A DNA stretch of 64,000 nt from a virus, in the UHGV virus genome UHGV-1483955; one strand, written 5' to 3'. This document shows, piece after piece, positions 28,622 through 31,534 of the stretch. The first letter of the stretch is position 1; each line of letters opens with the position of its first letter. The notes below the pieces were generated by a model. That model had not been told where the DNA came from, did no database searches, and saw only the letters and a list, made by a program, of their open reading frames with translations. A program made the translations under genes and the position numbers.

Positions 28622-29519
28622 GCACTGGAAAAACATTACTATTTATAAACTTTCTCGTGAGGCGGATCTGACCGACTTAGAAGATAAAAAGAAAATGATC
28701 CTTTTCACGCCATGCGGTAGTCAGGATATGGCCAAGTTCGGTTTTGTATCTCCATTTGGTGATAATTCCGAAGTTATCGCTATGCATGGAAATGGTTTTA
28801 TCCTTGTTGAAGCAAAGCGCGAAACAAAAATTCTTCCCCCGCCGGTTATCCAGCGAGCTATTCAAGAAAAAATTGAAAAACTTGAGCAAGAACAAGCGCG
28901 TAAACTGAAGAAAACAGAGAAGGACTCCCTGAAAGACGAAGTTCTGCATTCTCTTCTGCCACGGGCTTTTTCAAAGTTTTCTGTTATCCAGGCGATCTAC
29001 GACGGTTCAACTAAACGTATCTATATCAATGCCAGCGCGCGGCAGGCAGAGGATATGCTCGCGCTTATGCGTAAGTCTCTGGGTTCTCTTCCTGTTGTTC
29101 CCCTGAGTGTTGAAAATCCCATTGAATTAACGCTGACCGACTGGGTACGTGATGGTAGTGCTCCACAGGGATTTCAAATGGGGGATGCGGCAGAACTTAA
29201 GGCAGTGCTTGAGGATGGCGGTATTGCCCGAGTGAAAAAGCAGGATTTGGGAAGCGATGAAATTTCCACACACCTGGAAGCTGGCAAGCTCGTTACTAAG
29301 TTGGCACTCGACTGGCAGAACCGCATTAAATTTACACTGGACCATAACTTCAGCCTTACCAGCGTCAAATTTGCGGATGAATTGCTTGAGCAGAACTCTG
29401 ATATTGATAGTGAAGATGTTGCGCAGCGACTGGACGCAGATTTCTTCCTGTTGACCAGTGAAATTTCGTGCCTGGTTGATGCTCTGGTAAATGCCCTTGG
29501 TGGAGAGGCTAAGCAGTGA
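28613..29519 (+). CDS. hrdC: RdgC-family recombination-associated protein (P1 HrdC-like)
   Basis: [16 protein letters not shown]...[14 protein letters not shown]...LGGEAKQ; length ~302 aa and motifs match RdgC as I recall it. Confidence 0.75.
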
Positions 29520-31534
29520 AAGAGCTGTGCTATGGATCTGTTTGCAGTGGAATTGAAGCCGCGAGTATTGCCTGGGAACCGTTGGGTATGCGTCCGGCGT
29601 GGTTTGCTGAAATCGAGCCTTTTCCATCTGCCGTTCTTGCGCACCGCTGGCCCCATGTCGCCAACCTTGGCGACATGACAAAACTTGCCAAAAAAGTCCT
29701 GGCTGGGGAAATCGAATCCCCTGATGTGCTCGTCGGGGGTACGCCTTGTCAGGCATTCAGTATCGCGGGCTTACGTGGTGGGCTTGATGATGAACGCGGC
29801 GCGCTAACTTTGAAGTATGTGGAGCTTGCAAATGCAATTGACGACAAACGGTCTGAGTCCTTCCTCAAACCGACAGTTATCGTCTGGGAAAATGTCCCAG
29901 GAGTCCTGTCATCGGCAGATAACGCCTTCGGATGTTTCCTTGCCGGATTGGCTGGAGAAGATGCGCCATTTGAACCAGGTGATCGACCTGAATCAGGAAA
30001 AAGTAACGCGTTCTGGCGGTGGGATGGCAAAACCGGTTGCCATGCTCCAAAGTGGCCGCAGTGTGGTTGTATTTATGGACCGCAGCGAAAGGTGGCCTGG
30101 AGAATCCTTGATGCCCAATACTTCGGAGTGGCACAACGACGCCGACGCGTGTTTGTTGTCGCAAGTGCTCGAACAGACCTCGATCCCGCAACGGTACTTT
30201 TTGAGTTCGAAGGCGTGCGCCGGAATATTGCGCCGAGCAGAGGCGAGGGGAAGGAAACTACCAGATATACTTCAAACATCGCTATCAGATCTTGCGATGA
30301 TACAAACATAGTTGCCATGGCACATGGGCAAGGAGGGGCTGAGATAAAAACCGATAATTCGGCACCAACTTTGACATGTAACCATGAAGCACCAATTGTA
30401 TTGCTCGTCGACGGTAGAATGCGCCGTCTTATCCCTGTCGAATGTGAAAGGCTGCAAGGTTTTCCTGATGGACATACATTGATCCCTACGGAAAAGCGTA
30501 AAAAAGTTTCTTCAGATGAACTGGCATACCTTCGCAAAAACTATCCTGATTTGAGCGAAGAAGAGGCCGCGATGCTTGCAGCTGACGGACCGCGTTACAA
30601 AGCGATCGGCAATAGTATGGCGATACCAGTAATGCGCTGGATTGGCGATCGGATTGCCAAGGCTGCATGTCGGCAGAAGGAAGGGAGTGAAACAAAAGAG
30701 CGAAAAGTTAAACCAGCGGCAGAATTCGAACGGTCCATATTCAAATGGGCTGGTGGAAAATTTGGTGTTCTGGAACAAATCTTTCGCTATTTGCCAGAAG
30801 GGAAGCGCCTGATTGAGCCTTTCGTTGGTGGCGGAGCTGTCTTCATGAATGCCGGATACCAGGAAAATCTGCTAAATGATGTGAATGCTGACCTGATTAA
30901 CTTTTACAAGACTCTGCAACGCGAGGCGCATTCACTTATCACTCTGGCACATCGTTTCTTCCAGGACTACAACACGCAGGAAGGATACCTGGCAGTACGG
31001 AATGCGTTTAACAAACAAGTCTATGATGATTTACATCGCGCAGCGGCGTTTTTGTTCCTGAACCGACATTGTTTTAACGGATTGACGCGTTACAACCAAG
31101 CCGGTGAGTTCAATGTCGGTTATGGGAAGTATAAAACTCCGTATTTCCCATTGCAGGAGATGGAAGCCTTCCTTGGTGCGGAAGGGCGTTCTGAGTTTGT
31201 ATGTGGTGATTTTGCTGCGGTGATTGAAGCTGCCGGAGAAGGAGATGTCATCTTTTGTGATCCGCCGTATGAACCGCTCCCAAATACAGAGGGATTCACG
31301 AACTATTCCGGTCATGACTTTAAGTTTGAAGAGCAAAAACGCCTGGCGTCTCTGTTGACGGATGCTCATCGCCGAGGTGCAAAGGTTCTCATTACTAACA
31401 GTGGCGCGCCAAACATCAGAGAACTTTATCAGGACAGTGGCTTCAGAGTGGAACCTCTTTTTGCCAGACGTTCTGTGTCTTGTAAGGGGGACACTCGAGG
31501 TGTTGCTCATGACGTTATAGCAATATTGCTCTAA
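29516..31534 (+). CDS. dmt: bifunctional DNA methyltransferase: N-terminal C5-cytosine MTase, C-terminal Dam-like N6-adenine MTase
   Basis: C5 motifs [12 protein letters not shown] and WENVPG; Dam motifs [21 protein letters not shown]; GTG start overlaps hrdC stop. Confidence 0.9.

Follow-up and report, generated by a model that had tools for sequence, protein, structure and literature searches.

A P7-type dmt allele from a P1-like phage-plasmid: a probable two-module C5-cytosine and Dam-type DNA methyltransferase

Why would a phage carry two classes of DNA methyltransferase in a single polypeptide, and are both of them likely to be at work? This question is raised by one open reading frame in UHGV virus genome UHGV-1483955, of which a stretch of 64,000 nucleotides (hereafter the window) was analysed. 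We consider it highly probable, at roughly 85%, that this gene is the P7-type allele of dmt, carried by a P1-like (Punavirus) phage-plasmid, and that its product is a two-module C5 plus Dam-type DNA methyltransferase. The P1 dam gene is known from work of the late 1980s. An earlier note had read one 672-aa ORF with motifs of both enzyme classes, C5 at the N-terminus and Dam at the C-terminus, and both points are borne out by the ORF list and by Pfam and NCBIfam domains of both classes. This bifunctional reading is correct but already known, being described in P1/P7: the GenBank records of both orthologues, from whose annotation notes we took the P1 and P7 feature assignments, give N6-adenine and 'perhaps' C5-cytosine methylation. 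As such, the gene itself adds nothing new. A frameshift or assembly artefact as the source of the fused ORF was ruled out, since this ORF turns up again in hundreds of public records. The gene and its surroundings are laid out as follows.

28249..28265, + strand: operator Odmt (Op68) for the C1 repressor, ATTGCTCTAATAAATAT, lying upstream of uhr-hrdC-dmt and identical to the annotated P1 operator
28265..28294, + strand: promoter Pdmt, placed by way of the P1 annotation, with its -35 at 28265-28270 and its -10 at 28289-28294
28337..28621, + strand: uhr, 94 aa, with which the operon begins; assigned to PHROG 2213 (nucleoside triphosphate pyrophosphohydrolase)
28614..29519, + strand: hrdC, RdgC-family protein (302 aa; PF04381 RdgC, 328 bits), annotated hrdC in P1 and P7
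29516..31534, + strand: dmt (P7 'dam'), 672 aa, closing the operon; a C5-cytosine methyltransferase joined to a Dam-family N6-adenine one; stop codon TAA at 31532-31534
31525..31552, unstranded: operator Oban (Op72ab), divalent for C1, which overlaps the stop codon of dmt

The order uhr-hrdC-dmt-Oban-tRNA-Asn-tRNA-Thr matches the synteny of P1, and the uhr-hrdC-dmt-tRNA region is 97-98% identical in DNA sequence to P1, P7 and relatives. Within the operon the genes are tightly packed, with the end of uhr overlapping the hrdC ATG (28614) by 8 nt, and the GTG start of dmt at 29516 overlapping the hrdC stop codon TGA (29517-29519) in the sequence GTGA. A Shine-Dalgarno-like GGAGAGG run is found 7 nt 5' of this GTG. 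Translational coupling to an RdgC homologue had been claimed earlier; the upstream ORF is indeed of the RdgC family and the start/stop overlap is there, while coupling through that overlap is itself only probable. Fusions of C5 and Dam are found in other Enterobacterales as well, there with no hrdC upstream.

The window contains 13 matches to the C1 consensus, where 0.31 are expected. The sequence of Pdmt is identical to P1 L001 1366-1395, which is annotated as 'sigma 70 promoter Pdmt'. A scan for the strict sigma-70 consensus over 28100-32300 found no promoter on the + strand, Pdmt included, and Pdmt is therefore placed solely by identity to the P1 annotation. With uhr-hrdC-dmt lying behind a C1 operator, dmt is expected to be repressed, and thus silent, in lysogens, where methylation of the origin oriR would come from the host Dam. 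If C1 does repress Pdmt in this way, an uninduced lysogen and a cured strain would probably show the same methylation. Downstream of dmt, where P1 has its 'dicF-like region', Rfam gave no match to DicF in the homologous sequence of the window.

The protein itself can be divided into two enzymatic halves, the first of which is interrupted by a variable block.

29516..30235, + strand: C5 catalytic part, motifs I-VIII (aa 1-240, catalytic Cys78 in GTPCQAFS), assigned from motifs and a pLDDT of ~90
30236..30421, + strand: C5 target-recognition (variable) cassette of the P7 type (aa 241-302), 62 aa, the sole block that differs from P1 Dmt
30422..30670, + strand: C5 motifs IX and X (aa 303-385), from the motif alignment
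30671..30727, + strand: linker rich in Lys and Glu (aa 386-404) that separates the two Pfam domains, with pLDDT <50 for residues 387-401
30728..31531, + strand: Dam-family N6-adenine methyltransferase domain (aa 405-672), from the 2G1P alignment, TIGR00571 and the fold

The two modules, joined by this flexible linker, would probably act independently of one another. The Dam half matches the D12-class N6-adenine methylase family PF02086 with 196 bits over residues 411-644, and the NCBIfam dam model TIGR00571 with 253.9 bits (cut-off 114.85) covering positions 3-265 of the 267 in the profile. The domain can be aligned over its whole length with residues 4-267 of E. coli Dam (2G1P; E 1e-59), and its predicted fold matches that enzyme with a TM of 0.91 in Foldseek. 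The motifs KWAGGK (410-415), FVGGGA (436-441) and DPPY (582-585) follow in alpha-class order. KWAGGK, FxGxG, DPPY and most of the GATC-contact residues are common to E. coli Dam (2G1P, 2ORE), DpnM and T4 Dam, from which the window's domain differs in being both phage-encoded and fused to a second enzyme. Among the equivalents of the GATC contacts, K9, N120, L122, R124, N126 and Y138 are conserved, while three are changed (Y119F, P134G and R137K). On the E. coli Dam equivalog NF008152 the protein scores 248.6 bits against a cut-off of 441; by these scores the Dam half is a member of the Dam family, not an orthologue of E. coli Dam, and its GATC specificity therefore rests on experiments with P1. 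The P1 enzyme is reported to methylate GATC (PMC12707154), and its Dam half differs from that of the window at 5 of 268 residues (~98% identity). Residues 405-672 would thus be predicted to methylate the adenine of GATC at N6, as was shown for the near-identical P1 domain.

The targets on which such an activity would bear are present in cis.

25941..25997, unstranded: oriR cluster of five GATC sites (25941, 25948, 25959, 25981 and 25994)
59985..60143, unstranded: pac packaging site inside pacA, with seven TGATC(A/G) hexamers in groups of 4 and 3, a cis target of Dam methylation

The window's pac region is homologous to the stretch of P1 that bears the annotated pac cleavage site, and at the place corresponding to the oriR cluster P1 is annotated with 'Dam methylation sites 1-5', a known cis target of Dam methylation. 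In P1, pac needs methylation by Dam or Dmt (PMC12707154; PMC11437467), a link established by Sternberg & Coulby 1990 according to the statement in PMC12707154 that cites them, and dmt is non-essential in dam+ hosts (PMC10695390). During lytic growth, Dmt would itself supply the methylation that is needed before the GATC-rich pac can be cleaved, and would so free the phage from its dependence on host Dam. The proposal that GATC methylation by this enzyme serves the pac site and the origin is supported for pac by this link in P1, and both GATC-rich targets are present in the window; oriR methylation in the lysogen is expected from host Dam. We consider it very probable that the Dam half methylates GATC during the lytic cycle.

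What, then, of the C5 half? PF00145 (C-5 cytosine DNA methylase) matches the N-terminal part of Dmt in two stretches with 122.9 bits against a cut-off of 22, and TIGR00675 (dcm) with 112.9 against 100.65. Six conserved motifs are present in the canonical order, as they are in M.HhaI, M.HaeIII and the DNMT3 catalytic domains: I (CSGIEA, 10-15), IV (GTPCQAFS, 75-82), VI (ENVPG, 125-129), VIII (QRRRR, 207-211), IX (303-318) and X (GNSMAIPV, 365-372). The fold matches M.HhaI and DNMT3 with a TM of 0.63-0.71 (Foldseek). From those enzymes the window's C5 half departs in its motif I and in a 60-aa insertion between motifs VI and VIII. Residues 1-385 make up a complete C5 methyltransferase, predicted to add 5-methylcytosine at a short motif.

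The alternative that fares best against this is that the Dam half is the sole enzyme, with the C5 half a catalytically silent remnant serving in DNA binding or scaffolding, so that only m6A would be made in vivo. Full-text literature searches for C5 activity of any Dmt allele, or for its motif, returned no experimental report, and the P1 and P7 annotations carry their 'perhaps'. Furthermore, motif I, the AdoMet-binding loop, is CSGIEA instead of the canonical FxGxG, its last Gly being replaced by Glu; with 62 aa, where the median of 141 family members is 212, the variable region is one of the shortest and is poorly modelled; and the dispensability of dmt in dam+ hosts is compatible with silence. 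However, 121 of 150 family representatives keep CSGIEA as their motif I, which marks it, as far as sequence can tell, as a subfamily signature and not a sign of decay. The Pro-Cys (PCQ), ENV and QxRxR motifs align to their M.HhaI counterparts, and these, together with motif IX and GNS, are intact, with the catalytic residues invariant in 114 alleles. The C5 half is also held under purifying selection (pN/pS 0.13) much like the Dam half (0.11), and in sister alleles the homing intein that sits at the catalytic Cys would be excised in frame, which suits a site under selection. The intact motifs, together with purifying selection, thus favour an active C5 half, and a silent one appears unlikely to us. 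The good plating of P1 on McrBC+ E. coli K-12 speaks against heavy RmC methylation.

Where the window allele parts from P1 is in the recognition cassette. P1 Dmt (AAQ14041, AF234172; the classical P1 'dam' product) is 754 aa long and 91% identical to that of the window, with which it shares architecture, operon, regulation, Dam half and the pac and oriR targets; it differs in having a C5 recognition cassette of 144 aa that is unrelated to the 62-aa one. The break is sharp, at 30237/30238, with flanks that are 99.9% identical between the window and P1. P7 Dam (AAQ07538, AF503408), annotated in GenBank as a 'hypothetical bifunctional DNA methyltransferase', has 672 aa like the window's protein and is 97% identical to it over the full length, with only scattered substitutions. 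The recognition cassette, the operon (upf64.0/uhr-hrdC-dam) and the flanking C1 operators are all shared with P7. Over the first 240 codons, 719 of 720 nucleotides are identical to P1, and this N-terminal part is nearer to P1 than to P7, which makes the window allele, judged by these comparisons, a mosaic.

C5 specificity would be set by this short, exchangeable cassette (aa 241-302), in which a TL dipeptide lies within PTLT (284-287), followed by motifs IX and X. With a cassette unrelated to that of P1, the cytosine specificity is probably different, and the motif recognised would then not be that of the P1 allele. A sequence search of the PDB reached M.HhaI and M.HaeIII through their conserved motifs only, with no detectable similarity of the cassette to any solved structure, and neither these matches nor the AlphaFold model of the cassette (pLDDT ~30) allowed a specificity to be inferred. 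Across 114 alleles the amino-acid diversity of the cassette is no higher than that of its flanks, and the substitutions there are too few for dN/dS to be interpreted. In PLSDB, dmt is carried by 471 plasmids; the P7-type cassette was found in 184 plasmids and the P1 type in 257.

A second polymorphism lies at the catalytic cysteine, outside the cassette.

29744..29749, + strand: unoccupied intein insertion site at codons Pro77-Cys78, located by comparison with sister alleles

In ~28% of plasmid alleles a 341-aa LAGLIDADG homing intein, unannotated, occupies this position at the catalytic Cys; the window's dmt is free of it. In the literature searched, neither the cassette polymorphism nor the intein of Dmt is described.

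Exchange of variable regions around a conserved core is also a trait of the C5 enzymes of Bacillus phages SPR, phi3T and rho11s, which, like Dmt, are phage orphans, and for which the concept of a multispecific phage C5 methyltransferase is available (PMC12707154). Dmt of the window shows no sequence relationship to them, however, and in place of the tandem modules that multispecificity entails it has one minimal module of 62 aa; what appear to be tandem recognition-like modules were found only in a distant relative, P0129. We would tentatively suggest, at less than even odds, that Dmt is an active 5mC enzyme whose horizontally exchanged cassette yields at least two 5mC 'epigenotypes' (the 62-aa type of P7 and the window, and the 144-aa type of P1, with tandem modules in distant relatives), and that about a quarter of the alleles gain their catalytic Pro-Cys only after intein excision.

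A further possibility is that the methylase of pac is largely a separate protein, namely an additional Dam-only isoform of ~320 aa, made late from an internal Lpa-dependent promoter and starting at Met353 (ATG 30572).

30504..30522, + strand: a weak match to a late promoter (AAGTTTCTT N4 TGAACT), with the same letters as the 'predicted late promoter LPdam2' annotated in P7

The P7 record annotates LPdam2 at exactly the sequence of 30504-30522; its -22 box, AAGTTTCTT, fits 8 of 9 consensus positions derived from six annotated P7 late promoters, and GAAGAGG stands 5 nt 5' of the Met353 ATG. Moreover, dmt is split in two in ON470615, and as dmt-A/dmt-B in PMC10695390. On the other hand, the -10 element TGAACT does not have the conserved A at position 2, the P1 annotation contains no promoter of the LPdam2 type, a generic promoter scan was empty at 30504-30522, and transcript or protein support was not found. 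We regard such an isoform as quite improbable; moreover, it would add to the fused-enzyme explanation, not replace it. That dmt is instead the methyltransferase component of a Type II restriction-modification system, in which C5 and Dam-like methyltransferases are often members, is highly improbable and was rejected, because no endonuclease-like ORF adjoins dmt, its neighbours being uhr, hrdC, C1 operators and tRNA genes, in the same order as in P1, whose dmt is an orphan.

Under the favoured reading of dmt as a fused C5 and Dam-type enzyme of the lytic cycle, the most likely benefit of the C5 methylation would be that new phage DNA enters the next host shielded from restriction. Among the carriers of resistance genes in E. 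coli and Salmonella, P1-like phage-plasmids are common. The existence of two cassettes and of an intein could thus matter for the host range of these phage-plasmids against restriction systems, and it would matter to users of P1 stocks that carry a non-reference dmt allele.

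Both methyltransferases that the earlier note had read into this region, a C5-cytosine and a Dam-like N6-adenine enzyme, are indeed encoded by a single ORF of 672 aa. Its N-terminal part matches the C-5 cytosine methylase family of Pfam (PF00145, 122.9 bits) and residues 411-644 match the D12-class N6-adenine methylases (PF02086, 196 bits), which bears out the proposed order of C5 first and Dam last. The NCBIfam models TIGR00675 (dcm, 112.9 bits) and TIGR00571 (dam, 253.9 bits) both score above their cut-offs, and a full set of C5 motifs is found along with the Dam motifs KWAGGK, FVGGGA and DPPY. 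The GTG start codon (start region ...GGAGAGGCTAAGCAGTGAAAG...) shares the four bases GTGA with the upstream TGA stop, and GGAGAGG, a run resembling a Shine-Dalgarno sequence, precedes it by 7 nt. The preceding gene belongs to the RdgC family (PF04381, 328 bits), and the reported junction with an RdgC homologue thus stands as well. The features discussed here are:

25941-25997: oriR GATC cluster, five sites, matching the P1-annotated Dam methylation sites of oriR
28337-28621: uhr, overlapping hrdC by 8 nt
28614-29519: hrdC, overlapping dmt by 4 nt
29516..31534, + strand: dmt, from the ORF list
29744-29749: intein site, empty; occupied in the sister dmt loci L004 (L004:1648-2670) and L005
30236-30421: recognition cassette; counterpart in the P1 record, L001:3337-3768
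31525-31552: Oban, a divalent C1 operator, overlapping the dmt stop codon
32210-32285 and 32288-32363: two tRNA genes (tRNA-Asn and tRNA-Thr in relatives)
59985-60143: pac site, inside pacA, with seven TGATC(A/G) hexamers (4 + 3)

Positions 28400-32600 are 97-98% identical to P1, P7, RCS47, JL22, SJ46 and other Punavirus members, and the features annotated under these matches are uhr, hrdC, dmt (dam in P7), tRNA-Asn and tRNA-Thr. The protein shares 97% identity over its full length with P7 Dam (AAQ07538, 672 aa), and 91% with P1 Dmt (AAQ14041, 754 aa), which the P1 record describes as a 'bifunctional DNA methyltransferase; methylates DNA at N6 adenine in GATC sequences and perhaps at C5 cytosine'; the wording of the P7 record is nearly identical. 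Since these orthologues are annotated as bifunctional, and a fully identical protein is present in NCBI on an E. coli contig of 92.8 kb (P0001), the feature and its bifunctional reading are already known: the ORF is dmt/dam, a well-known gene of P1/P7-type phages. Within a representative library of 1.84 billion proteins, the fusion of a C5 core to Dam forms about nine 50% clusters, all with the C5 part first. Among species-representative genomes it occurs in Chimaeribacter, Kosakonia, Trabulsiella, Phytobacter and Scandinavium, all Enterobacterales, and in none of these five is hrdC or uhr found upstream; C5-only relatives are widespread in Proteobacteria.

The genes uhr, hrdC and dmt form a single C1-controlled operon, within which translational coupling is probable. 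A 17-bp C1 operator identical to P1 Odmt (Op68) lies at 28249-28265, followed by the sequence annotated in P1 as the Pdmt promoter. Allowing up to three mismatches, the C1 operator consensus is matched 13 times in the window (at 11624, 13294, 28249, 31525, 31536, 41959, 42866, 45583, 45632, 47724, 59166, 63440 and 63904), where 0.31 matches are expected by chance; the window therefore covers a large part of a P1-like prophage's C1 regulon. By analogy with P1 biology, Dmt would be made after induction or infection and be absent from the quiescent lysogen. Because of this expected silence, the methylation comparison of a lysogen with a cured strain, as proposed in the earlier note, would probably reveal no difference and is likely uninformative. 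The methyltransferase operon opens with uhr, a gene of 'unknown function' in the P1 annotation, whose product is matched along its entire length by PHROG 2213 (nucleoside triphosphate pyrophosphohydrolase; E 8e-64).

Several further elements were observed downstream of dmt. A hairpin resembling a terminator, with a run of T, is located at 31715-31737, ~180 nt past the stop codon. It belongs to a part of the window whose P1 homologue is annotated 'dicF-like region'; Rfam returned no DicF match there. Just past tRNA-Thr, a 140-bp segment (32440-32582) shares ~98% identity with lambdoid and Stx-converting phages (IME207, mEp460, Stx2c phages) and has no counterpart at this position in the P1 reference. 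Whereas P1 carries the plp, upl, tciA region downstream of the tRNAs, the window resembles MH422554. In this region Rfam matches the sRNA family STnc100 at 33138-33258, but below its threshold (37.8 bits against a gathering score of 47, E 1.2e-5). There is also a 275-aa lipoprotein-like ORF at 33509-34336, at the position where the related record MH422554 gives 'putative SPFH domain protein', and, after that ORF, a tRNA with a CAT anticodon at 34364-34439 (tRNA-Ile2 in the P1 annotation).

The Dam half (aa 405-672) can be aligned over its whole length with E. coli Dam (residues 4-267 of 2G1P, E 1e-59); DpnM and T4 Dam align as well. AlphaFold models this half with high confidence, and superposition of the model on E. 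coli Dam gives a TM of 0.91. In the E. coli Dam-DNA complex, the residues contacting GATC are K9, Y119, N120, L122, R124, N126, P134, R137 and Y138. The equivalents of K9, N120, L122, R124, N126 and Y138 are kept, and the other three carry conservative changes (Y119F, P134G, R137K). The Dam domain of P1 Dmt differs from that of the window at 5 of 268 positions. Both known cis targets of Dam, pac and oriR, lie within the same window as dmt. According to PMC12707154 (citing Sternberg & Coulby 1990) and PMC11437467, P1 pac cleavage and progeny production need Dam methylation, either by the host or by Dmt. The suggestion that the fusion could supply GATC methylation for pac and the origin agrees with this P1 requirement at pac. 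In the lysogen, host Dam would be the enzyme that methylates GATC at the plasmid origin. An eighth pac-type hexamer occurs at 60166 and a sixth GATC near the oriR cluster at 25904, and the pac region is 94.6% identical to P1 versus 99.6% to phiW39 and SJ46.

A late Dam-only isoform of ~320 aa might conceivably be made as well. The P7 annotation includes a predicted late promoter within the gene, LPdam2, and the identical sequence is present at 30504-30522. Compared with the consensus of six annotated P7 late promoters (AAGT[G/T]ACTT N4 TAnnnT), its -22 box fits at 8/9 positions and its -10 element, TGAACT, is poor. Met353 (in-frame ATG at 30572) has a Shine-Dalgarno-like GAAGAGG 5 nt upstream, within 30559-30574.

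Is the C5 half a working enzyme? AlphaFold models its catalytic core, residues 1-240 plus 303-385, at a pLDDT of ~90, with a fold matching M.HhaI and DNMT3 (TM 0.63-0.71). Motif I reads CSGIEA instead of FxGxG; of the 150 representatives of the family at 50% identity, 121 share this form, which points to a subfamily signature and not to decay. A comparison of seven P1-like alleles gives pN/pS values of 0.13 (C5 core) and 0.11 (Dam half), and across 114 alleles there is no variation at Cys78, Glu125, Arg209 and Arg211. Taken together, the fold, the conservation of motif I, the pN/pS and the invariant catalytic residues favour an active C5 enzyme. In the literature searched, no report of Dmt-dependent 5mC was found.

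The only large difference between the window or P7 enzyme and P1 Dmt is the block between motifs VIII and IX, which is where the target-recognition domain of C5 methyltransferases is situated. P1 Dmt has 144 aa here, unrelated to the 62 aa of the window. Up to 30235 the window DNA is identical to P1 at 719 of 720 positions; the identity then breaks off sharply at 30237/30238 and is back at 93-97% from ~30410, the result of a recombinational cassette exchange. Of the 471 PLSDB plasmids that carry the Dam half, 184 have a cassette of the window type and 257 one of the P1 type. Across C5 relatives more broadly (representatives at 50% identity), the variable region is mosaic and spans 32-413 aa (median 212), placing that of the window among the shortest, and a window-like module is present in 29 of 141 representatives. 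One of these relatives, P0129 (1148 aa), carries, after its window-type module, another one akin to the P1 cassette, an arrangement that suggests tandem recognition modules and recalls the tandem recognition domains of multispecific Bacillus phage methyltransferases. We infer that the P1 and P7 alleles would methylate different cytosine motifs. The cassette has no solved relative in a PDB sequence search and is modelled at a pLDDT of ~30, so that neither source yields its target motif.

The window allele has no intein. Among the 120 closest database clusters, 100 have a length of 1013 aa and contain PF13403 (Hint) and PF14528 (LAGLIDADG) domains. The extra 341 aa sit exactly between Pro77 and the catalytic Cys78 (C5 motif IV), start with CFTAGH and end with VVHN, with Cys78 as the +1 residue, features that mark the insert, as judged from its sequence, as a canonical LAGLIDADG homing intein. 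It is found with either cassette (1013 aa in OP279344 'P1', 1095 aa in RCS47), so that its presence is independent of cassette type and four allele lengths exist: 672, 754, 1013 and 1095 aa. Furthermore, 133 PLSDB plasmids have the dmt intein, vB_EcoM-Ro157c2YLVW, whose match is ~1 kb longer, probably bears it too, and it also occurs in the C5-only relatives P0162, P0198, P0237 and P0241. The phage records inspected leave it unannotated, and the literature searched yielded no published account of a Dmt intein. The methyltransferase fusion itself is real and was correctly read.
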